DNA of 56,961 nucleotides, counting the filler, from Sphacelaria rigidula (Eukaryota), in the NCBI GenBank assembly GCA_964200075.2. It is 4 parts of 4 records of this genome, joined end to end, with 100 filler letters (N's around TTAATTAATTAA, not from the genome) between each part and the next. Parts side by side here need not be neighbours in the genome. Positions count along the whole stretch, not along the records: positions 42,800 to 56,961 come from CAXNAA020002419.1; 3 more parts are not named here. One strand, given 5' to 3'. Position numbers and translations under genes: made by a program. Under the pieces are notes generated by a model that worked only from the letters and a program-made list of their open reading frames with translations, did no database searches and was not told the DNA's origin. Every line of letters starts with the position of its first letter. Positions within the stretch are counted from its first letter, which is position 1. Positions 3,317 through 56,961 of the stretch are shown piece by piece.

Positions 3317-4612
3317 GAGCTTCCTTTTTCTGCAGCCAGTCCGTTGTCAGTGTTGCAACTCCCCAACCCACGGAGTTGTTGTACAGAGCACTGATGACAG
3401 TACAGCAAGAGTCGTCAGTATCGCTTGACTCCGCCCACCTCTGCTGTAAACTCGATTTGACAGGTAAGTTGAACAGGCACCGAACATGCCGCTTGCTTTG
3501 TAACGGTCGAAATGTCAACAGTTCGTCGACATCGCTGAATTCATAATTCATCGAAGGATGCTATCCTCTCCCTCAAGGGAACACACAGAATGTCAATTTG
3601 GAACGACTATAGGATACATGTTGCAGTCCCATAAGATGCTGATCGGTGCGGCTACGTAATCATAATGAAAAGTCCCGGACACCCTCCGCCTGATATGCAT
3701 AGTGCGAGAGGATCACCTGTAACCGGGACTATGTCGCAGACACGAACAGCTGGCAACGGCCCCACCGGTAGCAGTACGAAATGTTCCGTCGTGGTGCTGC
3801 AAGAGCTCGAAACATTGCTTGACCTCAAGCTATACCAGGAAGGTATGCGGCAACCTTCGTTCGCCAAAGTTTTGTCCTCGGCAAGAAGATCTAGGTAAGA
3901 ATCTCCCAAGCGACGAGCAGTGAGGCTCCCCAGGAGCGATACTTCGTAATTGTGGCGATCGTGATTGTGTGTGAATCGTGTTCCCTTTGTAGTACTGCAG
4001 CCAAATGATACCAAGCCGCTAGATTGTCCGGCAGAGGCTACAGTACGTGTTCCCTTTGTACGACGACGGTGGACAGGCACTATATAACGGCGACTGGGAC
4101 GGGTGCGAATATAGAGGCACTGTCATCATCGGCATCCACCCATGTCACTATGGTTGAGTGCCTTGTTCTCAGTAACGATAAATCAAAGTAGATTTGGCTC
4201 GCCGCGATGCCGGGACGTAAACACAAGCTCAGTAGGAGGCACATGATTTGAATGATCCATATGTGAAGGACTCCTCCAGCATGCAACAGGCACAGGAGAA
4301 GTAATGCAAGATCCGTTCATTTAGGCATACTTCGTACTGCACTACTGTACAAAACGTTGGCTGGCTACTCGTACCAATTGAAACTTTTCATAACTACGCA
4401 CGCTCCCCTCTCTCGTCCAGAGCACCATCGATGTGATGGTTAGAACTCCATCAACTCCAAGTTACGTGTCGATGTTAACGTCTCAGAAGAACAAGGGGAT
4501 TTAGAGACAGCGGGCAGGCCAGTCGTATCCATTGACGCGTCGCCACCTGCATTCGTGTGCATTGACTTGTTACCTCGTTACGACAAAAACCCAGTTGATC
4601 CCAACCCGGTCC

Positions 4613-7600
4613 ATGCTCCAATTCCAATTGAAACGTGACGATAGCTCTCCTGCTGCTGTTGGTGTGCGCGGGAGAGCAAGTGCAAGTGCGACAACAGCAA
4701 AGGCATCGGGAGAGAGTGGTCCTATATCTAGACGGTGCTCTTCATCGGGGCCCTACGGAACCCGAGCAAGGATTAAATCCGTAGCTGGTCAAGACGACGA
4801 CGGCGACAAAGGTGATGGTCGCAACAGCCTCGCTGCAGCTGCTGCTGCCGCTGTTTGTTGTCCTTCTGCTACATGTGCAAGTACCCAACTCAGTCTGGAA
4901 GTAGCGCCGACGTTACAGCAAGAGGACGGGGAGAGGGGCTTCGTGAGCAGCACCGACGATGTGGACGGTTGTGGAGGGCCGGTAGCGACGGGAGAAGACG
5001 ATCGAGCTACAGCAGACGGTGAAGAGTACCGTGAAGAGGACTGTGATGGTGATTCTGAAGGAGTGGATGGGGACAACGGGGTGGGAGAGAGAAAGGAAAT
5101 CGTTGTCCTGCGGGAATTACTCCGCAGCAGAGAGGAAGATCTGAAGATGGCAGCGATTATCGGGCAGAAGTTACTAGATGCGCAAGAAACACTCAACGCG
5201 GAGCTCGAGGTATACAATTTCCACTAGGGATTGAGTGTTTCTGTCCTCATATTCAACGGCAACGGTGACGGCTTCTCGGGTACAGTTAATATTATATTGC
5301 TTGCTACTCGTCACTCGGGCCCTCTTCATGATCGAATTGGCCATGCTAGTGGGTGGCCTGCCTGGAAATCATATTTTTCTGTAGTCTCAGACGGCATCTC
5401 AATTAAGTGGTTCGAACCCTTATAGCCTCCAAAATTGGCAAAAAAAGGGGGGGGGGGAGGACGCTAGGGATGTTACTGTGTCATTTTCCAGTACATCATA
5501 GAGGTACCAAGATGTTATCTAGGAGAAGACACAATGATGCTACATGACCTTAGTGGAGTCAACCGACGTCTCATCCGCCATTTTAGCGCAGGCATTGCGC
5601 CCTTATACAGTATGTGTGCGAATCAGAAACACACAGGTGCCTTCATGACTCGCCGGGTGAAGGTTCAATCAAGCGCTCGTCTCTAGAAGGCTGTGAAAAG
5701 CGCTTAGAAACAACTGCAAGAAATCCACATTTTTCGAGAAAAGCGGCGGGAGCCGGGCGGGCATCCCACTGCCATAGATAGCGCGTATTGTTCAAGAACC
5801 CGTCAATTGTAATGGTCTTAACTGCTTCAATGGCCTGTCACCAGTAATAGTATTTTCCCGGTAAAATCCATTATGTTCAGGATGCTGCCTAAACACCCAT
5901 CGGGTGCTACGTACATATTCAGGCCAATTGCATTCTTTCAATACGCCCTCCGATTCGTGATTTCTACTGGGTGTACCCCTGAAGAACATCCACACCTTCT
6001 TGGCTTTGCACCAGCACGTCGCTTACTGATGGACAGCTGGGCATCTCATCCACGCGGGAAAGCTTCCCCTACTGCATCTTTCTACACTAGTCAGCGTCAG
6101 AAGTATGCAGAATTCGTAATTTCTTAGTTTCTCAAAGATTTTCCAAATTTGCTTCGCTTGCCACCGCTCATCACAGTGACTGTTGGATGCCAAGAAATGG
6201 ACACCTGGAGTTATTTTGGTCCTCTTGACAAATATTGAAAGAAAAAATATCTGCGATCAGTATTGAGTGACTTACGGACTTGACCGATCTTCGGGGGTCC
6301 TGCGAAAGTGCAACCCCAGGTTCTAGCTTTTCGGTATTTTCGATGGACTGACTCGATCCCGATCATATAAGTCAAGACTCAAAAATGATTGTTTTTTAAA
6401 TTTCACCTATTCACTGCGCTAAAGCCGGAAAGCCATGTCTCTTGGACCATTCACGGTCAATAACACCCTCCTGATAAACGGGGTGTCTAGTCCGTATCGC
6501 CCCCACAACACAAACTTGGGCATTGTGAATTGAGCACGGTCTGCTTATTTTTCCAAGACTATCGACACTAGCACTTTCGAGTGCTCATGGAAAATGTCAT
6601 GCGAAAAAACCCCGAACAGAGGCCATCCGCAGAAAATGCTAGACTGAGGTCTGTGCAATATAGGAGGGAAACATGATTTTGATCGTTATTGTGAAGAATT
6701 TTATACGTCTTCATTCATCTGAATATTTACCGTTTCGTTGCGGAAGAGCCGGAAAACTGTTTATATTGGACCAAAAACGATCAATAACACCCTCCCGACA
6801 AACGGGGTACCTAGTCCATCCATATCGACCCAAAAACACCAACTTGAGCACTGCAGTTTGAGCGCGGCCTACGTTTTCCCCCTGAATCTACCGGCGCTAG
6901 CACTTTCAAGTAGTACTGAAGAGTAATGCTCACGAAAAATCAAAAACTACAACACTTACGATTTCTGAAAACTTCTGATGCTGACTACTATACTTTTCAA
7001 ACCCTCCCTGGCGTTACATGAATGCATGGGATGCCGATCTCCTCAGGCAGCACGAGAGGAGAAATGGGTCGCGGAATGCCAAGTAGACGCACTAAAGCGG
7101 GATCTTGAGCATGCTACTTCGCAAGTCGCCGAGCTTCAAGAAGCCGAAGACGATCGATCTCAGGCTGACATTGAGCATGAGAGGAGCACCGACGGTGAGT
7201 GGGGAATTCGCAGAGCATACGCTACGAACCTGCGGCTAGTAGCACCGGTGGATGTACGGCACGAAGAAATCTAAGTTATGGCTGTTCTGTTGACAGCACG
7301 CAGAATAAGAATTGCTAGAGACAACGAGCATTGCGCTCCGCGGAAAGCAAAGACGTTACGCGAAGACCAAAGTGAGCTGACATAAATAATGCTCCTGGAG
7401 TACAAGTACTAGCATATCCACGTCGACAATTTGTACAGGTGTTGAATGCAACGGAAAATACAAAAAGCACCCAACACCTTACCTCCCCTGACATGCCCCA
7501 ACCTGTCATGATACGAACATAGACGCCGCGGAACTTGAAAATCCATCGCTCGCATATTGGTCTCCTGGTGCGGGAGGCGTTTATGTGGGCCCCACCGACG

Positions 7601-14168: not shown

Positions 14169-14268
14169 NNNNNNNNNNNNNNNNNNNNNNNNNNNNNNNN
14201 NNNNNNNNNNNNTTAATTAATTAANNNNNNNNNNNNNNNNNNNNNNNNNNNNNNNNNNNNNNNNNNNN
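14169..14268. other. Artificial contig spacer N44-TTAATTAATTAA-N44
   Basis: Exactly 100 nt, a palindromic all-frame stop linker, identical at three positions. Confidence 0.98.
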
Positions 14269-28435: not shown

Positions 28436-28535
28436 NNNNNNNNNNNNNNNNNNNNNNNNNNNNNNNNNNNNNNNNNNNNTTAATTAATTAANNNNNNNNN
28501 NNNNNNNNNNNNNNNNNNNNNNNNNNNNNNNNNNN
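28436..28535. other. Artificial contig spacer N44-TTAATTAATTAA-N44
   Basis: Same 100-nt linker. Confidence 0.98.
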
Positions 28536-28607
<72 letters not shown>

Positions 28608-42446: not shown

Positions 42447-42699
42447 GAGGGGGCACCAGCATCCCGTGCCACCCCTTGGAGTGGCGGCTCCAGCATGTGT
42501 GAGAGTATGCGCCTAGTGATGAGCCAGTCATCAGACAACGCCGGGCCATGGAATTGTACCGGGATATCTACCGAATGTTTCCCCGAGACAGTGATTAGTC
42601 CGGTTTCTCCTTCGCCGTGAGTACTCATCTCCTAGCATGATTGCGGGGGGGGGGGGGGGGGGGGTTTTTTGTCTATGCGGCTTACAAAAAACAAGAGGG

Positions 42700-42799
42700 N
42701 NNNNNNNNNNNNNNNNNNNNNNNNNNNNNNNNNNNNNNNNNNNTTAATTAATTAANNNNNNNNNNNNNNNNNNNNNNNNNNNNNNNNNNNNNNNNNNNN
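42700..42799. other. Artificial contig spacer N44-TTAATTAATTAA-N44
   Basis: Same 100-nt linker. Confidence 0.98.
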
Positions 42800-43025
42800 G
42801 CCTATGCCATGCCTGATCATGAGAACACCCCCCCCCCCTGCACATTGATTGTCATGCCCTTTCCGTCGCTAGCGAATCTGGCTACCTTTCAGAATTAGTT
42901 ATTGCCCGTGGCTAGGGTATCGCGTGACGTCAACCGCTACCCTCCTCCCGCGCACGGCAGACTGGTTGATGAACCCACCACCCATACCCCCCCCTCCTCT
43001 TATGAAAATATTTCCTGTGTCGTAG

Positions 43026-46000
43026 GCGCTGTCCGATCCTGCTTGCTACAACACCGCGGGAATTTTCTCGGAAGAAGCTTCGGAGTCAGAGCTGTTCAGA
43101 GTTGTGAAGAGCCTCGAAAAATCTAACCAAGTTCCAGATAGTTCCGCTGCGATTGGCCCGCCGGCTTGGCTAGTGTCCCTTGCGGGGGGTGGAGGTAGCG
43201 GCCATACTGCGGGGGGTGATACTGATGGGAGCGGGCGTACAGACAATGGAAAGGGCGGGGGTGGAGGTCACGGGCGGGGGGGGGGGGGGTCCGCGCATGC
43301 CCTCGCTATGGCGCTTCTTTTTTTTTTGCACAGGTTACCTGAGCCGCTGCTGACTTTTAGGAGACGGGAAGCTTTTTTGTCGTGCGAGGTAGGTCACAGG
43401 GTGTGTCATTTGCAATCGACGCAAGAGTTTTGTTATGTTGTTTTCAGCTTTCGGGTGCTGTATGTTCTGTTGAGTGTCTACTAGCTTGCAAGGGTTTTTG
43501 ACGGAGGGGGAAGCAGTGCAAGATATGCCGTACGCTTGGAACGAACGTGTGTTGATTTTTTAACCTTCCGCACCTCTCCATAGAATGCTGCTCACGCACT
43601 GATCGCGTTATTACCAAGGTACTAGCAAGAGCCCGAAACACAAGATTGTCTAGTTTCGAGAGTAGACTGTGTAATTAATGTGCGGGTTGGGCTTGCGGTG
43701 GGCAATAGCCATGTCATGAAGGTATTGACATATTGTCATTTGGAGGCATAACAGAACGTCACAACCCTCAGCCGCCATCCTACTGATAGCCTAACCAGCA
43801 TGTACCTGGTGCAAGCAGGGTTGTGGTCATCGTCTGCTGCGCAGGCAATGTGCGAGATCCACGCTAATATGACACAAAACGCTGCAAAGGTTCCTCTACC
43901 GAATACACCTTACTCGTGAGCTGTTGGCGTGATCACAATATTCGATTCAACGAATAACAGGTGATACCAGACGTGAAGGCAAGAGTCCGCAACGTAAAAC
44001 TTCTGGTGGAAGACTTGCCGTGGGCGCACAAACCGCTCTTGCTCGCTCTGATCGACCTCTTGGCCACGATGACGTCATCAACGGCATCTCCTAACGACCA
44101 TTCTTCCGAAACGGCACCTGTGGCCGTCGGCGGGGTAGCGATCATAGACGAAACGGATCTTTTCCATTCTGCCATTGAAGCAACTGGTGGGGTAACCGCT
44201 CGTGACGCGGCGGAATCTTTTGCTCCTGCATTACTCCGCCCCCCACCCGTGCCCAGCAACAGCCGCGGGCGCGGTGGTCACGGCAGCGGTACCGGATCGG
44301 CTAGTGACGGGGTGAGCCGAGGCGGTGAAACTAGTGTCGGTTGGGAAGAGGAGCTTGCGGCTACCAGCGTGGTGGAGTTGCTCTTGAGCGAACGGGATTC
44401 CGTTTTCAAGGATTTGAGAGCGGAGCAAGCTAATAGGTAGTGTGTCTTGTCCTCCTGGTGGTTTTTGCTGTGGTTTGGGGGGTGGTCCAGGCTGGAGGAA
44501 CGCTAGTGGCTGTCGAGGTGTCTCATTTGCTTGTTGTATTTTGTGCGGTATTGACGCAGGTGAAGTATGTCCGTTCTTGGTCTGCTCCCTCATACGGTGG
44601 ACATCAAGTAAACACAACGATGGAAATAACAATTTCCTGGCTGCTTCCGTCTGCTTGATTCCCCAATAGGCGCTCTTGCTTTTTCGTAAGCCCTCTGCGA
44701 TTGATGTACCGGAATAGTGGGGTGAACACTGCTCGGGAAAACTAACAACGCCTTTTGGCGCGGTGTCCCACCCTCCCTTTTCCTTCATTTTTTCGAAATT
44801 CCCCTCCCATGCACAGTGCTCCGTGTCGAAAGGGATGCGTGTTCAACGGTCAAATGACCAAGGCAAGCAACAAATGAGTATACCTTTCCCCCCTCCCCCC
44901 TGACGTCTGCGCCCCTGCTGACATTACTGAGCAGAGAGGAGAAGCTGTCCCAGAAAGTGAAGCGCTTGGGTCAGCTCCAGAGAATGCTAGCTGCGAAGGT
45001 GTTGCTGGAGCGCCGCGCGCACTTGGCCGTTGTCATCTCCATCTGGCGCAGGTTAAGTGTTCGAGCTGTAGCGGCCAGGCCTCACGCTTGACCCCTTTTT
45101 GCGCAATGTTGTTGTCATCGTGCCGTGGTCCATTCGTAATAAGCATGGAAATAGTATTAATAACAACGACAATAATAAGAATGAGAAAAAGAATAATAAG
45201 CACGGCCGTGCGTTGAATCGAAAGGCTGTCGTTCCATACCATGTTGAGCTACACTTTTCGGGCAGAGAGGCCTTGCGCAAGACATTATGCATAGAAGTTC
45301 ACGTTGCAGTTTGTAGCGGATGTCCTTTCCCCAAAACAGGATGTCAGACACCGCCTGATTCCTGGTCCAAGAGCGAAACGTCGGCCAGAGCACATCCTTA
45401 TGATGTAACCCTGCTACATGGTGGTCATCGTGTTTTGCGGAACTACTTCCATGAAGTTCTCAAGTGGAAAGCACACTGAAAATATCACGAATCCACATTT
45501 AGCCACGAAAAATGGCGATTTCAGAAAAATGAAGCGACAGTGGCATGAATACACAAAAAATTGCCACGGATGTCACCGGTCATCACCGCTGCTTGCAGGC
45601 GGGAAAGCACAGCAGGTTTTGAGTGCAATGGTCGATTTGAAGAGCATGGGCTCCACAGACCAAACAAGAGTGCGTGTGGTGAGGGCTGAGCACAAGAATA
45701 CCGCTGTACCGTAGCAGCACAGCAAAATCGTAGCACGACAGCTAAGTGCAGGACATGGCACTGCAACAGCGCACACAAGGATACGGTGCTACGGATATCG
45801 CTGGCCATCCCCACTCGCAGGGTGTTTAGTGCAAAACTACTCCAAGGCTCAAAACAAAAACGCACGGCAATAATCGAGCGTAGAAAAAATGTTCGGTAGA
45901 AACTGAGCAGAGGAAACCGTACCGTAACAGCTGAGTGCAGTACAGAACACCGCAGACGTCGCAGAGCACACAGTGCTGTGTGTGCAGCGTGACAACTGTT

Positions 46001-49000
46001 ACCTCAGCATGGTCGGGAACGAAGACGAATCACGAACGAGTTTCGTTCTGGTGTGTTACAGTGCCAAGAGCCGCCGGACTGGAAACAGAAGGCACTCATC
46101 ACACTCGACAGACAGGCACCCCAATCCGGTACATCATGCATGCAGCAGACAGCATACAGCGTGCTTATAGCAAAACCGTATCGCAACAGCTAAGTGCAGT
46201 ACGTAGCATTGCAGGCAGTGCAGTTTAGTAGCTAACGACCTCAAGTGCGACTGGCAGGTCCACCAACTCGCGTGGCCCGAAGTTTTGTTCATCGCGCCGC
46301 GTAGCGACACCTGAACCCCCAAGCCCGCGGCAACAGTTTGCTCTGAACTGTGACTGTCCGAGTAGACAAGAGCGCTGTGCCTTGTTTGAAGTCCATGCCG
46401 TTCACAGATACATGCTGCTGTAAATTTCCGCGCGCCTCTGCCATGGTAAACCTGTTTTCCGTTCGTACGTCGGCATGACGTCCATCAATAAGGGGTGGGT
46501 GCGTGCGTGCGTGGGGAACCAAAGTTGGGGATGATGACGTGTGCGAACAAATGACTCTGTGACCCACACATGTATGTACTGCGTGTACACGGAGTGAGAT
46601 TGAAGAGGTTGCTTGGGGCTGACTTGGCAAATACGACGACCACACGTACGGGTCGCCGAATTTGCGTGACCCGAGTTTGTTTCACGGCGCCACGTATCGG
46701 CGCTTGACCCCTCTTGCCCGCGGAAACACTCTCGTCGGTGTGATACTGCGGTTGTCTCTGCGGTAGGCGGGGACGTTGTACACTTGCTTGCGGTACATGA
46801 GAGCGAAACGCGCTGCTGTGAATTTCCACGGAAGTCGTCTGCTGTACAGTAGTGGGCGGTCTGACTATCCAGCGGGGTTTGGGGGTTTCCTCGCGTACTA
46901 CTCTTCTATAGAACTCGGAATTGCTAGCGTCGGGAAATTTAGATTTTGGTACAATAAACAGATCATCTTCGAAATACAGTGCCCAAGTTAGTGCTAGTTG
47001 GTGTTATCGGGCGAAACGAGTAGATACACCGTTCATCAGGAGGATGTTATTGACCGTGAAACACAGTTTTTCGGCTCTAGTGCAATGAGTAGGCAGAATT
47101 TCGATGAAATAAAACTTTACATTTTTTTGGAAATATGATCCGGACAGGCTCGATCGACCGAAAATACCGAAGAGTAAGAATCTGGACTGAAACTTCGCAG
47201 GACCCCCGATGAACGGTCAGCCCGTAAGTCACTCAATATTGAGTACAGATGTATTTTTTTTCTTGGGATGTGGAGCGGATACAAATATCTTGAGATCGCC
47301 AATTACGAAGAAATCACAAAATGCCTCAAAATGAATAGTTAAACCGCCCACTGCTGTACACGTCTTCTTCATCTTGTACGGCAGCATGACGTCAATCACT
47401 GGGTGCACTTTGGTTTTTTCAAAAATCTCGTCCATGCATGCCTCGTCACAGAGGAGTGCGGAAGTGATTTACTGTATTTTGAACACAGCTCTTCTAAAAT
47501 ACACCTCTTGTCCTTTTTCATTCGGGAGCATGAGATCAACCGATTGGTGGGGGCGGTATAGTTTTGGTGGCCCATCACCGATCACCGCGGATGAGTGCGA
47601 CCGCGGGTGATTTACTGCGCACTCTATATAGCTTTCAGCACACACTTTTCAGTCACTTCCCCTGTGGTACAAACGCGTATTGGAAGGTTTTGGGGCTGAG
47701 CTTTCATTATCCGGAACATTCACTAAACAAGCGTGACCCATCCTTTTTCGATTGTCAACCCTCCCAAACTCACGAGTCAATATCAAATCGCTTATTACGG
47801 TGACATGACATGCTACTGGCATAGCCGTTGATTGCTGCGTACTAATCCTACACAGAAGTATGAGGGCAACCTAGGCAGCAACCTTGGACACTTTGTTATC
47901 GGTAAGCGGACCAGCACTGTGGCACCCTGTCGACTCTTGCCGGATGTCCGTTGCTCTCCGCATCCTCACGCTGTCGAAGGCGAAAACCACGTTCTGCTCC
48001 AAAATACTTGTATCTGTAGGCATTCGAATCCACACCCTTCTGCCCTGACTGACGTACTGCTGTACCACTTGGACCACCAGAGCGCAGCGGTAAATCAACT
48101 TTGATGGAATTTGTCAAAATTTTCCCCATCGCACCGCACGGTGTCTCCCAACGCAGGCTAGAAACTGCCGAAAAAAAACTGCTACAGGGAGCAACTGCAG
48201 AAGACGAAGCTAGTGTTGGGCTACAGCCGATCTCGGACACGAAGGGACCCGGCCGCGGCTACGAACCAACCGAGTCGTCGGCATCTAAGAGCGTAGGTGT
48301 CGGGATTCCATCCAATCTCTCTGGGGGGGGGGGCGGTTTGAAAACCACCGGACCGTGTGGACCGCGGTCCCCTATGAACGTAGACGAAGACGTTCGTGAG
48401 TTGGAGAATATGTTTCTCGGGATTGAAGGAGATGATCCTTCTTGGGCCGACGGAGACACCAAGAGCGTTTCCAACAACGACGTTCCCGGCGATGACGCCA
48501 CCTCTGCTGCAGCAAGGGAATTGCGAGAACAAATCGACCACGACATGCAGGGAACAAGCGTAAGCATGGAAGGTGAAGGTGCTGCCGAAACAGGTGCGGG
48601 TTCGGACATTGCGGGAAAGGTGTTTGATGCCGGTAAAAGCACGATGCAAGCGTTCTCCATCGAAGAAGACGAAGGCGAAGGAGCGGCAGCAGAGAAGCTG
48701 GCGGTGGGCCACGGCAACAGCACTGCCGTACGAGACGAACACGGTACGCTGGTGACGACAAGCAGGAGGGGTGGTAGTAGACGCGATGTTGACAGTGACT
48801 TCGAAGACACGGAGAAACTCTTGGGATCCATTGCGGAGTCGCTGACGCCTACTCCTGGAGCTACTCCGCTTGAAAAGGGCGCTAATGGTAGCAACACCGA
48901 CCACGTGTCATCATCTCTGGCCATCACAAAATCGGAGCTAGCGCTGGTGAACCTCATGGTCGAGGCCGGGGAAGAGTCTGGAGAAATGCTCGCCACAGCT

Positions 49001-52000
49001 GGTGCGGGGTGCTCCTCGACGAAGTCGAGCACAGCGGTCAATTTTGGCAGTAGTGATAATATTGATACTAGCGCCCTGGGTGGCAGGAGCGAAAAAACGA
49101 AAGCGCCCTTGAGTCGAGGTTACCGGCGCGCTAACTCCGGCTTTGACGACGTCCTCATAGAGGGCTCAACGTCTCACGGGTCAAGTAGTAGCATTAACGC
49201 TGAGGATGGGAGCGGGGCAGTTGACGCCGGTGTCCGGGGGGATACACGAACGCGGGATACACCGCAAGTTGTGCGGGATGATCCCGCGTCTTCGTCGATC
49301 GCCGCTGAAACGGTGATGGATTCTGATTCAAAAAGCGCCATCGTTTCTTCGTCCCCTGCAGGAGAAACAGACGTGAAGGCTACGAAGAACGCAACATCGA
49401 CGCTAGCAGCTACGGACACGCTCGAAGACATTGCGCTAACGGGGGTCGTTGCTGATGCGCCGCCCGTCGCGAGATCTCCTCGAACGGTTCTCCGATCCGA
49501 GGTCGTTGTCGGGAATTCGACTGAAGCAACACGAACTTCGCTTGCCGAACGACACGAGGGGACGATGAAACAAGTATTTTCTTTGGAACACCAGAGATGG
49601 GTGTCATGCGGATTCAAGTCCGGGCTGGTCGTGGATATGCTCGGACCCGCTTCGTCCGTCCGTGCGGCTTTAGTTGACGCTGGCAGTGTGCTTGCCTTGG
49701 ACAGCCTCAACTACTTCTTGTGGAGGTACTTATCCCACAATCCGAAGACTAGTAACATCTGCCTTTGGTCATCGTTTAAAATATATTTTTCTTGCACCCG
49801 CAGTACCCAGGATTGCAAAGGAGGTATCATACGAGTTCCATCCTTTCAGAGGGTTCCCAGCACACAAATGATGGAATTTTCGCACAGCCTACCGACGACA
49901 CCTTGCGACACACGATTGTTTTTCCCTCACTTTCCTTTGGGTTAATTTTATACATCTCCAGATCTTTTGTCTTCGTTCGCAGCAATAATTCTACGGTTCA
50001 ATGCTCTGAGTCGAGATCTCTTCACCAGATATCACTGCTGGGAATAGAATATGTTTCTTGGAACCGGCCTCTGTCCTTCCCCCACACCTCTCCCATCGCT
50101 CCGCAGATATCCACAGTCGGCAACGAGAGTGGTGACAACGTTCGTGCGACGACAACACACCCCGCCGATCTACGCCGGAGAGGCCGGCTCTGGTGGCGGA
50201 GGAGATTTCTGCCCATTTCCCAGCCATGTCGGTCACCTGACGCGCTTGGTAGCGGACCTTTTGTGCCTCCCGCCGGTGGGATCGGCGGGAAATAAGACGT
50301 CATTTTCAGAAGAGGGCAAGGATGATGGCTCAGAACCCGGGGATATCTGCGCGCTTAGACTGGCAAGGCTCGAGGCGTGGAAACTACTGGACTCTCCGTA
50401 TGCGTTCCAGGAAATGGTTTCGTGTGCAGTGCTCGCTATGGACGCTGCGCAGCTCTACGCTCAGGGTCGGGGGCACCATCCTCACCTAGTGAGTTTTGAT
50501 ATTTTTGCAACATTGCGTGGACTTTCCATGGATAGATGAAACTGAGTGACGAGGGAGGTAACTATGATTCAGGGCATGCATCTGCGACATGGTGGTTTTT
50601 AGGGAATTGTCTCATGAACGGATGTATCTTCGACAAAGTTGTAAGCCTGAGGTGGCCAAGGAAAATAAAGTAACCCCCGTTGTTGTATACTTCAAAACCA
50701 TGTATCTGCAAGGTGCACCTGAGACGAGGACACCCTCCTGTTATGTACACATACTGGTCTATATATATATATATATATGTATCCCTCGTACTTCGTACCA
50801 TTCTTGCTTGTGCTATAGTATTGAGATCTTGCACCCCGCAACCTGAACGAGAGACTAAAAACCAATTCATCGGCAGAGCTGAGGTCGCGATTGCTGAACT
50901 CGCAACTAATTATTTTTCTCAACTTGGGAGGGGCATTTAGTCCGCGACGCAGTTGTCTGCGGAAGCGGGAGAATGTGCTCGAAATAGGATACTACTGTCG
51001 ATTCCAACCTTGTCAAGTTGCTCCCCGTCGTTCCCCACTACATAGTCATGTATGCAGGCATCCTAACACTTCCCATCGTCGTCGGAACATATAGTCGTCA
51101 GCTGTGAGACTAGAGGAGTGAAAAGAGGAAAATATATATATCATTGTCTTCAGGTGTGCGCGGTGGTTTGTTGTTGAGTTTGCGTTTTTGGGAGCTGCAG
51201 TATTAGTACGTTGCCCTGGGTCGAAGCCTTCGGGTATATGTTGGCGAATAGCACCCCAGTTCTACTTGTGGGTGAGTGTCTACAATGTGTGATGTAGGTA
51301 GTGGATGGGCTGCGAAACTGATGGGTTCAACGGTTTTTTCGCCATTTTTAGGGTTAACACGGCCGAGAGGATTCGTGAAAATCCTGAAGATGCCGCGGGA
51401 TACTTTTTGTGATATATTCCAGAACAGGTTTGTGACTGTTGGTATTTATGTCCCACTTCTTTTATTTACTTCCATTAGCGCGTAGCACGCCCCCCACAAA
51501 AAAACCCAAAGCTATCCACAAGCAAAACACCATCGCTGGCAGACAATGACATCTCGGGCATAGGGTCGGTGTCAATCCAGGGTTCTCTTCTTTTTGTGCG
51601 TTCGCAGGAGACGCCTCGCTTTCTATGGTATCCCAAAGGCGTTTCGAGGAACTTTCCTGGGAATGGTTATGCTGGTGTGGATCCCCTGTCTGAAGAGCTA
51701 TAATAGTGGTGGAGCTTGAACACCTGTACTGACGCGCATACACCGTCTCGCACTTGCTTTCCAATTTCGTTGATTTCTCATCATATGCACATGATAGTAC
51801 CAGGAAAGTCTCGTGGAAACCCGACGCATATTGCAAACCTGCCTACGTCACACCCCGGACAGCGTTGACTCCTTGTGGGCAGCGGCTACCGTCGAGGGAG
51901 GCATCTCTCTCGACCCAGCTGACACATCACCACCACCTGCTGCTGCAGATAGCACTGGCGGTAAAGTAGGTACGCGGGGTGGAGGGTTGGAAGATCCTAA

Positions 52001-54187
52001 CTTTGGTGGACAGGAAAGGGGGAATGCGGCACGAGAATCTGCAGCCGAGGAGTTGATGAGAGTCCTGGGATTGAGTGACCTTGCCGTGGAAGACGAAGAG
52101 CTGGGAAAGGGTAGATTCGGGTGAGATGGTTGATTTTCCAAAGGTCCCGACGGCGTGTTCGATGAGAGCGTGTTTTCGATGCGCTGCTCTTCAGTGGGGC
52201 ACTTTTGTCAACAGGCGACGGGATATCTTTTTATCCAAGATGGGGCAATCAAGTGAACCCGTCATGGATCATGGAATGCCACAGTATGCCGATATTGTTG
52301 GCAATTGCAGTACAGGTCAACGCACTGTCGTACTGTTGCTTGGGGTGCTTTGGGTATCCAGTGCACACCATGCATGTACAGCTTTAGCAAGGATCCCGGC
52401 AATTTCCTCTCCGACTGTGTATCCAAGAACGCGTACACGGCGTTACATTACCTACATGAAGACTGAGCACTATCGTGTTGTATATCTTCTTCCAACCATA
52501 CTTGCTGTCGGTCAAATGAAGACTTGGATGGCCAGGACGGTTCTACTTCCAGTCGCACACCGTCCAACCTCGCTTCGCATCACCGTTTCTTATTTTGCTG
52601 TCCACAACAGTGCAAGCCGTGGCATCCAACCTGAACATGCACGCAAGCCATCCTTCGCCAGTAGCAGCTATAACCGCACATCGTCCTATGGCGGATTGGA
52701 CAACATGTTGTCTGACAATCGCCTACCATCGGACGGGGTTCAGGGGGCTGGCGGCATCTCTCGAGGAGGCAGCGCAATGTCTCGGGACCCTAGCGGCGGT
52801 AATTGGTTACTCGGCGGCGAAGAGGGACGTACCGGGATGATTGACAGTATTGCGGGGGAGAACAATGGATTGCCGGGTCCGCTGGTGCTTGATATCGATG
52901 GATTCCGGGCCCAGCTTCTTCGTCCTTCTCAGGTGAGCTCACATGATGACTGGTGGTATGGTGTTAAGGTACCCTCAACTGCAGCGCAGGTGACCTCAGA
53001 AGCGATATATATAGCACCGAAAGGCCAAGCATGCGTACCACTTGTTGGGACATTATCTTTTGTGGCGGTGGCTCCAGCGCTTGCACGAGCACCATGAGAA
53101 AGTCCGTTGTCAGCGACAAGACTGTAGCTTAATGCGCGTGGGGCAGTATCCTGCTTGCCTACGAAGCACATGTTGTGCGGGTCTTCCTCTCTACCACGTC
53201 GAATGCTCGCGTACTTGAGCCCCGTTCTTTCGTGTCGGCATGTCTCTATGGTAGTGTCAACTTCCGCCACGACCCCAAAGATGTCCGTCCTTCATATACT
53301 GCACTAGTGTCTTACCTACCACGCGCGGATCGAACCGGTAATGCTGCCCGCAGATCCTCTCGGACGACAACGCCCGCGCACTCGCTGGGCGCCTACCCGA
53401 CACCGTATCTAGTTGCGATTGGGTAAACCTATACTCCGACGCTAGGCACGGTACCTCCCTCCAGACATTGCTGGCACGCTGCGACGGCTGGCAGCCCACT
53501 CTCGTCATCATAGGAGCTCGCTACTCCACAAGAGACCCCGCAGCGGCGGCCATCCCAGGATCTAGTGGGGAGGAAAAGATGATACCTCCAGGGGGGACGA
53601 GGGAGATGCCGGAGCGGGTGGCTACAAGGGTAATCGGTGACACTGTTGAAACTGCTGTGTTTGGTGGATTTGCGTCGGGTGCACCGTGGCAGCATGGTAA
53701 GGGCTTCTCCGGTGACGGCCGCAGTTTCCTCTTCTCGTTCAACGGCTCTTCTTCTACTAATATGTCATTATCGACGTCGTCATCGAGCCACGCGCGACCG
53801 CCGCAGGGATCAGTCACTACTTTTCACAGTCGAGCAGAAGCTGGTGGTGAAGGTAATCAAAATCTGCGAACGTACGCTTGGAGTGGCACGAACCGTTTCT
53901 TTATGATGTCAGACGAAAACGCGGGGCTCGGCATGGGAAGCGGGGGCAAATCGGGAGAGTTCGGATTCTTTGTGCAGAGTGATTTGAGGAAAGGCACCAC
54001 TGGGAGGTGCGAGACTTTCAACAATGACCCTTTGATCCCGACTCAAACGTCAACAGTAGAAACATCAGCCGGTAGTGGTGGCGGTGGCGGCGGTGGTACC
54101 TTTGACGTGACGTCAATTGAGGTTTGGGGCTTCCGGCACGCGCAGAGAAGCGCCTACGACGATTCTTCCTTGAGAACTGCCCTTTGA
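43026..54187 (+). CDS. Multidomain protein: RhoGAP-like + ELMO/CED-12-like + C-terminal TLDc domain (5'-partial, at least 1459 aa)
   Basis: Exons 43026-43388, 43961-44436, 44935-45051, 48157-49725, 50107-50488, 51804-52120, 52611-52932 and 53354-54187 splice GT-AG into 4380 nt with no stop until TGA. RhoGAP-like motifs: TAGIFS, HALAMALLFFLHRLPEPLLTF, LPWAHKPLLLALIDLL, FAPALLRP. ELMO-like motifs: HLAVVISIW, WVSCGFK...GSVLALDSLNYF, CPFPSHVGHLTRLVADLL, AFQEM. TLDc motifs: WVNLYSDARHGTSLQTL, VFGGFAS, GDGRSFLFSF, YAWSGTNRFF, CETFNNDPL, FDVTSIEVWGF. Confidence 0.8.
44816..44900 (-). mobile_element. Dispersed repeat family B copy
   Basis: gtgctccgtgtcgaaagggatgcgtgttcaacggtcaaatgaccaaggcaagcaacaaatgagtatac followed by a C-run. 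Confidence 0.8.
45715..46225 (+). repeat. Three degenerate about 55-bp direct repeats separated by about 140-200 bp of unique sequence
   Basis: agcaaaatcgtagcacgacagctaagtgcagga (about 45721), aggaaaccgtaccgtaacagctgagtgcagta (about 45911), agcaaaaccgtatcgcaacagctaagtgcagta (about 46169). Confidence 0.6.
53354..54187 (+). CDS. Terminal exon encoding a complete TLDc (OXR1/NCOA7/TBC1D24-type) domain
   Basis: All canonical TLDc motifs occur in order within one exon. Acceptor cgcag| at 53353, stop at 54185-54187. Confidence 0.92.
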   Translation: MLSDDNARALAGRLPDTVSSCDWVNLYSDARHGTSLQTLLARCDGWQPTLVIIGARYSTRDPAAAAIPGSSGEEKMIPPGGTREMPERVATRVIGDTVETAVFGGFASGAPWQHGKGFSGDGRSFLFSFNGSSSTNMSLSTSSSSHARPPQGSVTTFHSRAEAGGEGNQNLRTYAWSGTNRFFMMSDENAGLGMGSGGKSGEFGFFVQSDLRKGTTGRCETFNNDPLIPTQTSTVETSAGSGGGGGGGTFDVTSIEVWGFRHAQRSAYDDSSLRTAL

Positions 54188-55448
54188 AAAATAGGGAGGG
54201 TGTTGCGCGCAGTTCCAGAGAGCGCGAGTTTGTTGTGTGAACCCCGCGTCTATGCACCATGCTCTGTAGGATCATTTTAGCGTCCGGTTCTTCGTTTTGC
54301 CCGTAGTGACGGTGACAAAGTCTTGGTGAGTTTGAACACGGGCTGGAAACGTGCGGTTTGGGTGCATTGACCGCCATGCATTTTCTCCTCAAATTCAGTA
54401 AACCGCTACAATGAAGAAAGGGGTGTGACATGATTGGATAGTTAGCCATTTTTGAAGTCTTGTCCTTGTCCGTGACGCTCCGCGTGGGTCTAGCCCTCTA
54501 GTAATTTCCAGGTGATGGTCGCGTGTGCTACGTCTATGCACTTGATGCTCGAGGATGCTGGGTCGTATTATAGTAGTCTGCCCAAGGAAGAGGATGATGA
54601 ATAGTTCGTGCGTCGGTTCTCTATAAAATAGAATTTGGAGGGTAGTGTGGTGTGGAGCTGTCGCACTAGACTGACTCGCAGCGGATGCACTGTGGATGTC
54701 AACTTCTTGTCGTGCAGCAAAATGTCAAGGTCGTGTGGTTTTCACAGGTGGTTTTTTGGCCAAGGCAGGATTTACAGTATCTTTTGAACGCAGAGACCTA
54801 CGAGTACAAGGTCAAGATATTCCCTGGGGTATGGGACAGAGGGGTGTCGACTTCTCTTCGTATAATGTACAGCTTACCTACGGACTGGGGTGATCCACTT
54901 CAATTCCCGGAGTCTGGGCGCTGGGTATCAGGATGCGAGAAGTGAGGGTCCCAAGCTGAGTTCGTCCATGTGTGGTGTCACCCGAGGCCGATCACATGCA
55001 TGGAAACCCTCGCAATTCGATCAGTCACATCCCCAACGACCACTACCTCTCACGTATACGTTGCTGAGGGTGAGTGTAGGAACGTGCCGTGCATGTATGT
55101 TCCGTCCATGGGTTCTGCAGCGTAACGTATCCACGGCTGAGGATATGAATGTATCGAGTGTCCCGGACACGTGCCGGGCATGATTGTCCAGAAGGCGGAA
55201 GGGTGACAGGTGGTGCGCATGTATATTTGCCGATGGATAAGCACCCCTGAAGTACAGGTAACTGCAATGAATTAAAGCAATTAAATACTTGAAAGTTGTG
55301 CCCGTGTTGCCTACAAACGTTATCTACTTGCTGGGCGCAGAGTACAGTCGACACAGACAGTGCTACGTGACTTCAAGATGGATGGATTTTCTCCGACGCA
55401 GCAAATGAACAGTCATTTATTCATTGCATGGGTCTTAGATGAACGCGT

Positions 55449-55523
55449 TTAACCCTGACGCGAGGAGGGTTGGCCATCTGGATCATGCATACTTTTCTCA
55501 ATGGAAATTCATGCTTATTCAAC
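55449..55523 (+). mobile_element. Partial relative of the piggyBac-like MITE at 1288-1385
   Basis: TTAACCCT...ctggatcatgcatacttttctcaatggaaattcatgcttattcaac matches ctggatcatgcatacttttttttcacttgaaattgatgccgattcaac. Confidence 0.6.
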
Positions 55524-56961
55524 GGACATGCGTTCGTGATATGGGAGTCAAGAAGCTCATCGAACGACAGTTAACCATATGGGTTTCATTGGTTAACTAA
55601 AGAGTCCGCACTGAGTGTAAAACTGCGCTGCTGCCGTCATGGCTGGCACCTACGGATTTCTCCTTGAAAGAAGAAAACACCACCCCCACACGTTTCGAAA
55701 ATCAAAGAGAGGAGGGGGGTGATAATGGGTGGGGTCAGATTCGTACTAGGTGGTGGTGAGTATTTGGCTTCTACCATCAACTTGAGCTTATTCTGACTTG
55801 CATCAATAAGTTTGAGTGTAGTGTGTGCCGTGTATAACTGCTGCACGAGTCTAGTGTAGGTATGACAACTAGCTGACTCAACCTACTCCTTGGGCGCGCG
55901 GTTTCGATGAATGTCGACCTCTGAAAATTCTACACTTTTCGATGAGTTTGTGGCTGCTCAAGGCTCCCGCCGTAGCAGGAAGTCAAGGTACCGTCCAGTT
56001 GTCTCTACGCGCTGATGGTGGGCAAGCGAAGTGAGGGTGTACATAAATATGTGTGGGTGTGTGCGCACGTGCGCTTCTAAGGCAAAACTATCGAAGGAAA
56101 GCCCGCCCACCAAGTTGTACGTGCTGATTGAATTTTGCGAGTATATGCCTGACAGTGTGGTACGAACCAGGGAGGAAGTTAGTGGGCGCCCGGAGAATCA
56201 GGGCGCTTCGGGGTGCAGCGAAGATATTTCGGATGATCGCCCACTTGCCGCTGAGTTTGACCTTGAAGGCTGCCGATCATGTTGCACTGGGGATTGGGGC
56301 CAATGATTCAGGGGGAAACGGCACTGAGATGCTACCTGACAGCGGGTCAGATGTGGGACAAGGCAGCGAGGAGCCAAGAGGGCGAAGGCGGGGTTGCCAG
56401 AGAACTAAACGGAGTCAAACTTGTAGAGCGGTAGCGTATCAGATCTGTGGATACTCCTCCTGTACCTGATGTACAGTAATTGGGCTTGGTTGTGCTGTAG
56501 GTTGGGTTGGGCACAATGTACATAGTCTAAGGGCTTCAATCAATGTAGGAATACCTTTTCTGAAAAAAAATCGAAGGTACTTGTCACAAGCATCATGGCT
56601 AACATACGTGTTGAACCCATCAAGTGCAGCGTTCCCCGCATGAAATCCATGTTTTCGGAAGGCGTCCACGCGCCAGGATTGAGGGTAAAACGGTCCAAAA
56701 TAGCGTGTGATCCTCAAACATAGTGCCCTCGGGAGGTCCCCACGGCTAGCTCGTTGCTGCCTTCGGACGGATTGGCGCGTGCCGATAGATAAGACTCTTC
56801 CAGAAAACCGCTCTCACTGCAATCTTCTCCAGCAGCGGTTGGTTGGTGCTTGATTGTTGCCACGCATTTATACCAGCATGTTCACTTGAGGTATAAACAG
56901 CCAATCATCTATGTTGAGGATGGTGCTTTTGATTGAGGATGAGAACCCGAAGGATTAAAAT

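Follow-up and report, generated by a model that had tools for sequence, protein, structure and literature searches.

The stretch of DNA analysed here (56,961 nucleotides of the Sphacelaria rigidula assembly GCA_964200075.2, hereafter the window) contains, on the + strand between positions 43026 and 54187, a gene initially annotated as a fusion of RhoGAP-like, ELMO-like and TLDc parts and as a candidate link between small GTPases and the vacuolar-type ATPase (V-ATPase). The locus is shown to be the 3' three-quarters of the brown-alga ortholog of a RUN-RhoGAP-ELMO-TLDc protein, intact where it is present and expressed as one spliced mRNA. The S. rigidula protein is uncharacterised but not unique, and has relatives across the brown algae and oomycetes.

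The gene sits entirely in the last piece of the window (42800-56961), on the + strand, where an eight-exon, phase-consistent frame spans 43026-54187; once spliced, it measures 4,386 nucleotides (nt) and comprises 1,461 codons with a terminal stop only, and the stop-to-stop open reading frames (ORFs) of the + strand contain its exon segments. Nine of the 11 sequencing runs listed, drawn from three studies, carry the locus or part of it, and four of these were examined: X1, which is DNA-like, and X6, X7 and X8, which all belong to one study, bear an RNA label that is a guess (none of the runs listed is recorded as RNA), and were treated as RNA-like only because their contigs are spliced. The features of the gene are as follows.

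42800..43025, + strand, 3' end of an intron, with its preceding exon or exons outside the window (in an X7 RNA contig, at least 255 unmatched nt stand before 43025)
43026..43388, + strand, exon 1 as numbered in the window, phase 0 to 0, covering the central stretch of the RhoGAP-like domain (tblastn with Ectocarpus residues 549-661, 50% identity)
43389-43960, + strand, intron, GT..AG, from RNA contigs
43961..44436, + strand, exon 2, covering the RhoGAP-like domain's C-terminal half as far as about 44410 (Ectocarpus residues 661-824, 45% identity)
44437-44934, + strand, intron, GT..AG, from RNA contigs
44935..45051, + strand, exon 3, conserved helix after RhoGAP, 'LAVVISIWRR' (71% identity over 41 amino acids, tblastn with Ectocarpus)
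45052-48156, + strand, intron, GT..AG, from RNA contigs
48157..49725, + strand, exon 4, long low-complexity linker, with the start of the ELMO-like part from about 49619 ('QRWVSCGF...LALDSLNYFLWR'; hhalign query columns 28-225)
49726-50106, + strand, intron, GT..AG, from RNA contigs
50107..50488, + strand, exon 5, central ELMO-like part (E 7.7e-21 to Ectocarpus 1316-1447)
50489-51797, + strand, intron, GT..AG, from RNA contigs
51798..52120, + strand, exon 6, end of the ELMO-like part, to about 51902, then linker (acceptor 51798 by RNA joints and the deposited protein)
52121-52610, + strand, intron, GT..AG, from RNA contigs
52611..52932, + strand, exon 7, linker with a conserved 'WLL.GE..R.GMIDS' block before TLDc (alignment, RNA joints)
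52933-53353, + strand, intron, GT..AG, from RNA contigs
53354..54187, + strand, exon 8, TLDc with two insertions, stop codon 54185-54187 (Pfam TLD, joint 52932/53354)
54188..55546, + strand, 3' untranslated region, to the limit of the RNA contigs (X8 to 55370, X7 to 55546)

Contigs from X6-X8 skip seven GT..AG introns (coordinates are given after the cut shifts stated by the tool), and six of the seven joints were seen in all three runs, the joint 43388/43961 being seen in X8 only. Contigs from X1 cover 42828-46933 and 47327-56916 colinearly and make none of the seven skips. Summed over X6-X8, sequencing depth was about 50-110 in exon bins vs about 1-5 in non-repeat intron bins, and a single X8 contig of 5,236 nt begins 28 nt before the end of exon 1 and continues through exons 2-8 into the 3' untranslated region as far as 55370. 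The gene is shown by these contigs to be expressed as one spliced mRNA. The single phase-consistent frame of eight exons that had been predicted from the genomic DNA is thereby borne out, since the spliced contigs cross all seven introns and encounter only the terminal stop, and the RhoGAP-like and TLDc parts, for which separate transcripts had been considered, lie on one transcript, spanned by an RNA contig from exon 1 to exon 8. Among the individual junctions proposed, 45051/48157 is exact in X6, X7 and X8 and 52932/53354 is exact by RNA contigs; the junction given as 50488/51804 was off by 6 nt, the acceptor in use being 51798 in X6, X7 and X8 and in the deposited protein alike. Tandem acceptor candidates are present at 51795-51803 (TAG, followed 6 nt on by CAG), of which the three RNA-like runs take the upstream one; no joint using 51804 was found among the joints listed.

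A deposited protein, CAM9311705.1 ('unnamed protein product [Sphacelaria rigidula]', 1,367 amino acids, here P0167), was found via the 90% cluster of the exon-4 ORF. It is encoded on a contig of 14,162 nt, matching the length of the last window piece exactly. It is identical to residues 95-1461 of the model (100% identity, no gaps), and its exon junctions are therefore the same, but it starts at an internal Met at 43308, in exon 1 and inside the RhoGAP domain, and is truncated at its N-terminus because the contig is cut there. Position 43026, which had been taken as the start of the gene, proved to be an internal exon boundary: it is preceded by an AG acceptor, and the RNA runs on upstream, one X7 contig extending at least 255 nt beyond 43026 into sequence that matches nothing in the window. 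The last 30 upstream nt of this contig, in frame with exon 1, read VPDAVSNLMA-ALSDPAC across the boundary, and the upstream VPDAVSNLMA parallels Ectocarpus VPDAVLSLIE-ALSEEGC ('VPDAVLSLIEALSEEGC'). The gene is truncated by the contig edge at 42800, and the absent 5' exons would be expected to supply the remainder of the RhoGAP domain together with a RUN domain, which the orthologs carry. Searches of the window for this missing part gave nothing credible by relaxed tblastn with Ectocarpus residues 1-560, aimed at a RUN domain or RhoGAP N-terminus elsewhere in the window, and nothing significant when family hidden Markov model (HMM) positions 1-337 were compared with 1,559 six-frame ORFs of the window; Pfam found a match of any kind in just one of 150 ORFs of at least 90 amino acids outside the locus, and no RUN. 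The lone match is a weak HAP1_N at 4505-5224 (+ strand), in the first piece (20.3 bits vs a cut-off of 33.9).

The identity of the gene rests on its relatives. When longer proteins were searched with the TLDc exon, seven matches were obtained at E <=0.001, including two Ectocarpus proteins of about 1,900 amino acids in which Pfam recognises, in order, RUN (60 bits), RhoGAP (38-40 bits), ELMO_CED12 (18.4-18.6 bits, sub-threshold) and TLD (88-90 bits). The spliced S. rigidula protein is about 40% identical to the Ectocarpus proteins, and residues 549-1920 of one of them (P0002) fall on the window as eight colinear tblastn blocks. Against a family HMM (alignment A1, built without the window), the spliced protein gives a single envelope over positions 338-1049 at 452.1 bits, to which the window exons match in colinear order, exon 2 covering positions 404-517 at E 2e-21. 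In oomycetes the same arrangement is complete by Pfam in P0127 of Aphanomyces euteiches (870 amino acids; RUN 45.7, RhoGAP 78.4, ELMO_CED12 32.2 and TLD 157.1 bits, all above their cut-offs), which bears the UniRef name 'Oxidation resistance protein 1'. When P0127 was used in a word-based search, 27 proteins were returned, 15 of which, spread over Aphanomyces, Saprolegnia, Achlya, Lagenidium, Globisporangium, Pythium, Phytophthora and Nothophytophthora, carry all four Pfam families; of the remaining 12, most have two or three of the families and three have one only. The ESM Atlas contains two clusters of oomycete proteins with these domain sets, one of 62 members and one of 71. A RUN+RhoGAP+ELMO combination with no TLD was also seen, in Aphanomyces P0146, P0148 and P0149 and in an Atlas cluster named 'ELMO domain-containing protein'; these entries may be truncated gene models, isoforms or a paralog without TLDc.

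Among ochrophytes, the family HMM detected ELMO+TLDc in a Chrysoparadoxa protein and several unnamed fragments, and all four regions in the metagenome protein P0006; a search with residues 640-1501 of the latter returned just P0006 and one other protein, its relatives probably being crowded out by low-complexity words. With the Scytosiphon ortholog P0005 as query, phmmer found 125 representatives at E <=0.001, most of them exon-sized fragments; the Pfam scan covered 27 of the 125, the longer ones, and found ELMO_CED12 in five, four of which also carry TLD. The initial annotation had suggested that the combination was possibly lineage-restricted. It is not, since the same order, with an N-terminal RUN, occurs in Ectocarpus and in 15 of the 27 matches to P0127, across eight oomycete genera. 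The further suggestion that the architecture is not a characterised one stands as regards the literature, in that a full-text search, supplementary tables aside, found no paper describing a RUN-RhoGAP-ELMO-TLDc architecture; the sole paper found in which TLDc, ELMO and RhoGAP occur together is a large mouse gene-list study. It does not stand as regards the databases, where the relatives have already been annotated by machine ('Oxidation resistance protein 1', 'Rho-GAP domain-containing protein', 'ELMO domain-containing protein') and the S. rigidula protein has been deposited unnamed, so that the claim of novelty is weakened.

The three recognisable parts of the window copy differ in the ease with which they are detected. 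The TLDc domain of exon 8, noted at the outset as clear, is so (Pfam TLD, PF07534, 106.3 bits, E 2.1e-30 for the ORF 53342-54187; 102.3 bits in the spliced P0167; cut-off 24.5). The RhoGAP-like assignment of exons 1-2 also holds: single exons score 21.9 and 13.1 bits against Pfam RhoGAP (PF00620), both sub-threshold, and the spliced P0167 scores 32.4 bits vs a cut-off of 24.5. This match corresponds to profile positions 60-126, the first third of the domain lying outside the window. Exon 1 encodes 'AGIFSEE', with Ser at the arginine-finger position, and an 'LHRLPEPLLTF' motif; a search of the Protein Data Bank (PDB) with this exon alone gave glycine-run artefacts and weak RacGAP1 matches and was uninformative on the position of the finger. 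When P0167 was compared with the PDB, the chains matched were the TLDc chains of NCOA7, OXR2 and Skywalker and, weakly, RhoGAP chains, with no ELMO chain.

The ELMO-like region, which had been placed in exons 3-6, is confined to the 3' end of exon 4 and exons 5-6, where it is identified via orthologs; exon 3 and most of exon 4 consist of a helical linker and low-complexity sequence, and the S. rigidula protein itself has no Pfam match. The brown-alga orthologs P0005 and P0010 score 27.0 and 24.4 bits with Pfam ELMO_CED12, above the cut-off of 23.3 (the 18.4-18.6 bits reached in three Ectocarpus proteins fall under it), and they are 47-49% identical to the ELMO-like region of the window over 216-222 residues, P0005 at 49%. 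The combined family profile A1 matches ELMO1 residues 332-514 at E 0.0023. In the AlphaFold2 model of P0005, most of residues 90-280 have a predicted local distance difference test (pLDDT) score of 80-96, confidence being low in a loop at about 151-178; the model superposes on the ELMO domain of ELMO2 (6ie1_A 309-504) with a Z score of 10.7 and a root-mean-square deviation of 3.6 over 167 residues, the next unrelated match having Z 6.3. With Foldseek, ELMO2 was the first non-TLDc match to the P0005 model, but at E 0.21 and probability 0.97. For the P0127 model, ELMO2 gives Z 15.9 and the next unrelated chain Z 6.1. We conclude that the middle region is in all likelihood a diverged ELMO domain, an assignment that for the window sequence depends on orthology and on the predicted fold of the orthologs. 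Elsewhere in the P0127 model (mean pLDDT 74.7), the RhoGAP part matches at Z 24-25 (24.9 at best) and the TLDc part at Z 16.6, and the RUN part matches at Z 17-20.6, the structures concerned being FYCO1 (20.6), SKIP/PLEKHM2 bound to Arl8b (20.4) and PLEKHM1 bound to Arl8b; by sequence profile, RUN-domain matches in the PDB range from E 9e-15 to 5e-11.

With regard to function, we lean towards a role for this RUN-RhoGAP-ELMO-TLDc ortholog as a TLDc adaptor of the V-ATPase that is positioned by GTPases, and as a pseudo-GAP (GAP, GTPase-activating protein) that is itself non-catalytic. Its TLDc domain would dock on the V1 sector of the V-ATPase, like those of characterised TLDc proteins, and the RUN, RhoGAP-type and ELMO-type modules would bind GTP-loaded small GTPases of the Rab/Arl, Rho/Rac and Arf/Arl kinds. 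Such binding could recruit the protein to certain endomembranes or gate it at those sites, and the brown-alga protein would act without GAP catalysis, as an adaptor. The non-catalytic character is proposed because the arginine finger has been lost and no conserved arginine was seen in the ELMO motif. A bolder formulation, which we hold to be possible but doubtful, is that the proteins constitute an undescribed oomycete/ochrophyte subfamily (a new TLDc subfamily as well as a further ELMO class) that reads, on one polypeptide, the state of up to three small-GTPase families and so governs where the V-ATPase assembles or is active, the brown-algal RhoGAP domain now being a pure binding module.

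The V-ATPase end of this proposal depends on the TLDc domain. In the mouse, each of the five TLDc proteins co-precipitates with the V-ATPase, and in Ncoa7 the substitutions G815A, G845A and G896A abolish V-ATPase binding and S817A, L926A and E938A weaken it (excerpted text of PMC8608904). Exon 8 aligns with the TLDc of NCOA7 (chain 7uzg_T) in three blocks by HMMER (E 5.6e-13), and the equivalents of G815, S817, G845, G896 and L926 are identical in it (five of the six, positions hand-counted in the HMMER alignment); the equivalent of E938 falls outside the aligned blocks. Exon 8 also contains an 'IEVWGF' motif, and its nearest solved TLDc structures are the V-ATPase complexes 7uzg, 7une and 7fde. 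It could nonetheless be supposed that the TLDc domain serves in protection from oxidative stress or in some other role apart from the V-ATPase, the GTPase-type domains then serving actin or trafficking independently of acidification. TLDc proteins were first described as oxidation-resistance factors (PMC5614904), the oomycete orthologs go by the name 'Oxidation resistance protein 1' in databases, and for two of the five mammalian proteins, Tbc1d24 and Tldc1, pull-downs with the purified TLDc domain alone did not recover the V-ATPase (PMC8608904, as excerpted), which means that a TLDc domain is no guarantee of direct V-ATPase binding. However, the database name is automatic and derives from the TLDc domain alone, all five full-length mammalian proteins as well as yeast Oxr1 and Rtc5 associate with the V-ATPase (PMC8608904, with PDB 7fde, 9moy and 7une), and the residues required for binding by Ncoa7 are conserved in exon 8; we regard a role of this kind as unlikely.

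The GTPase end turns on catalytic residues, which were counted in a MAFFT alignment of 14 sequences. The finger column was set by HMMER, which aligned oomycete 'prLFRttvs' with 'teGLFRksGs' of ARHGAP11A and 'dgiyRvsGn' of ARHGAP15. It holds Arg in all 10 oomycete rows and in P0006, Leu in both Ectocarpus rows ('GLFLRE') and Ser in the window ('GIFSEE'); in this alignment, therefore, the arginine finger is shown to be lost from the brown-alga copies. Because the finger is Ser, the RhoGAP domain here is probably not working as a GAP. An active double GAP, in which RhoGAP would switch off Rho/Rac, ELMO would switch off Arf/Arl, and TLDc would tie the catalysis to the V-ATPase, gains something from the oomycetes, whose 10 rows keep the finger and whose modelled RhoGAP fold matches solved GAPs at Z 24.9, as well as from an Arg that lies in Ectocarpus one position beyond the finger column and from 'PRGSGLLGL' of the distant relative P0006, which, read by eye, resembles what we take to be the ELMOD motif. 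In the window, by contrast, the Ser of the finger column is followed by Glu-Glu; the Asn of the 'NLA' motif is missing in all 14 rows and is replaced by Asp in the window and Ectocarpus; and the column taken as that of the ELMO arginine has no Arg in any of the 14 rows, with P0006 misaligned there and the mapping, made by eye, a weak one. Coupling through GAP activity, which the initial annotation's appeal to Rho- and Arf-family GTPase state had left room for, is accordingly doubtful here, with Ser in the window, Leu in Ectocarpus and no conserved ELMO Arg, and we consider a double GAP improbable, more so than a role outside the V-ATPase.

Several observations weigh against the adaptor proposal or the architecture that it presupposes. 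As regards the ELMO domain, Pfam ELMO_CED12 (PF04727) matches neither P0167, with E values as high as 10 admitted, nor any single exon; an oomycete-only ELMO HMM found no match in the spliced protein; an ochrophyte-only profile (A3) retrieved TLDc chains only from the PDB, with no ELMO1/2 chain; and the agreement by hhalign between the ochrophyte ELMO regions (an alignment of eight sequences, window included) and those of oomycetes is moderate (E 3.5e-4, 149 colinear columns, probability 37%). The position of the ELMOD GAP arginine is reportedly that of East et al. 2012, the equivalent column having been picked by eye. The Ectocarpus Arg one residue past the finger column is a further point, and residual GAP activity may persist in the brown-alga protein. 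The RUN domain of S. rigidula is extrapolated from the orthologs, just 30 nt upstream of exon 1 being visible. The TLDc of the window contains two insertions of about 45 and about 38 residues relative to NCOA7, and the purified Tbc1d24 and Tldc1 domains described above show that such domains may fail to bind by themselves. Finally, the RNA label of X6-X8 is a guess, and the three runs come from one study.

That the brown-alga copy might be a decaying relic, losing its function, would accommodate the lost finger, the divergence of a region in which Pfam detects no ELMO, and the length of the Ectocarpus protein (about 1,900 amino acids vs 870 in Aphanomyces, the difference being mostly low-complexity sequence), but it is hard to reconcile with an open frame of 1,461 codons over eight exons, spliced RNA contigs at a depth of about 80-110 and blocks conserved at 40-49% identity with Ectocarpus, Scytosiphon and Hapterophycus, and we think it very unlikely. 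An artefact, in which neighbouring RhoGAP and ELMO-TLDc genes were merged or the contig misassembled, might be suspected from the 3.1-kb intron and long low-complexity exon that separate the RhoGAP and ELMO parts and from the joined contigs of the window itself, but is effectively refuted by the RNA contig that crosses every junction in frame, by the colinear X1 DNA contigs (42828-46933 and 47327-56916) and by the same domain order in orthologs of two distant stramenopile groups.

TBC1D24 is an animal TLDc protein paired with a GTPase-regulator-type domain, a TBC domain that reportedly lacks the catalytic finger and is joined to TLDc, and the pseudo-GAP adaptor proposed here resembles it in this respect. 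In both TBC1D24 and Drosophila Skywalker the GTPase-regulator-type domain lies N-terminal to a C-terminal TLDc, as it does here; the Skywalker TLDc matches the P0005 model at Z 12.9, and TBC1D24 co-precipitates with the V-ATPase (PMC8608904, as excerpted). The partner domain in those proteins has, however, a TBC/RabGAP fold, as against RUN, RhoGAP and ELMO here, and homology is limited to the TLDc. OXR1, NCOA7, yeast Oxr1 and Rtc5, and mEAK7, all of them binders of V1, likewise have the TLDc in common with the stramenopile proteins (P0005 model Z 14.9), but OXR1/NCOA7-type partner domains are of other kinds (a LysM+TLD match was seen), and the window TLDc carries its two long insertions. The closest comparison is with the oomycete 'Oxidation resistance protein 1' (P0127) and Ectocarpus P0002 and P0004, which have the same domain order and homologous TLDc, RhoGAP and ELMO domains. 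The window copy differs in that the contig edge has removed its 5' portion, which would carry RUN and the beginning of RhoGAP. Compared with the oomycete proteins, the brown-alga copies have about double the length, through low-complexity inserts, and have lost the finger that oomycetes retain.

The ELMO fold of the orthologs is shared with the ELMOD proteins, which are Arf/Arl GAPs, and with ELMO1-3, the partners of DOCK proteins (ELMO2, Z 10.7 and 15.9), but here there is no PH/RBD context, no ELMOD-like stand-alone form and no conserved motif Arg. ELMO domains have been placed in ELMO and ELMOD proteins, with DIX-ELMO 'ARAMIS' proteins proposed as a third class (PMC12077222); the excerpted text of that paper (2025, mBio) has 0 occurrences each of TLD and RUN. 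RUN-RhoGAP-ELMO-TLDc would be a further class beside ELMO, ELMOD and ARAMIS. The RUN domain at the N-terminus of the orthologs is like those of PLEKHM1, PLEKHM2/SKIP, FYCO1 and RUFY3 (Z 17-20.6), the PLEKHM1 and SKIP structures being complexes with the lysosomal GTPase Arl8b; the window itself has no RUN.

To our knowledge, no class of proteins other than the TLDc proteins is dedicated to regulating V-ATPase assembly. A stramenopile family in which TLDc is coupled with three GTPase-type domains would provide a testable rule, namely that small GTPases position TLDc regulators, and the retention of the finger in oomycetes vs its loss in brown algae offers a natural comparison that could separate binding from catalysis. 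The family also matters for genome annotation, where the machine-given name 'Oxidation resistance protein 1' conceals the architecture.

The remaining observations concern the setting of the locus. Depth rises hundreds to thousands-fold above the flanks at 44692-45164, 46584-47529 and 56517-56961, a sign of high-copy repeats; these regions are the same in all four runs, and many non-GT..AG joints fall there in the DNA-like X1, which points to repeated DNA at the end of the contig and within introns 2 and 3. ORFs of the high-depth repeat regions yielded no Pfam domain and 12 intronic or antisense ORFs no credible Pfam family, and the one repeat identified, a weak family of 45 nt, lies in intron 3. 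The window is divided by three identical linkers of 100 nt (N44-TTAATTAATTAA-N44) into pieces of 14168, 14167, 14164 and 14162 nt, as follows.

14169-14268, artificial linker (N44-TTAATTAATTAA-N44)
28436-28535, artificial linker (N44-TTAATTAATTAA-N44)
42700..42799, no strand, artificial linker (N44-TTAATTAATTAA-N44) joining two unrelated contigs, the contig of the gene beginning at 42800

This arrangement fits size-sorted contigs joined by a spacer with stops in six frames; since the window is four contigs joined, the sequence before 42700 is not the genomic neighbourhood of the gene. Homopolymer runs stand at or near the piece ends, with about 70 G (28536-28607) following one linker and, on either side of another, about 19 G before (42647-42665) and about 10 C after (42829-42838), and are probably points at which the assembly broke.

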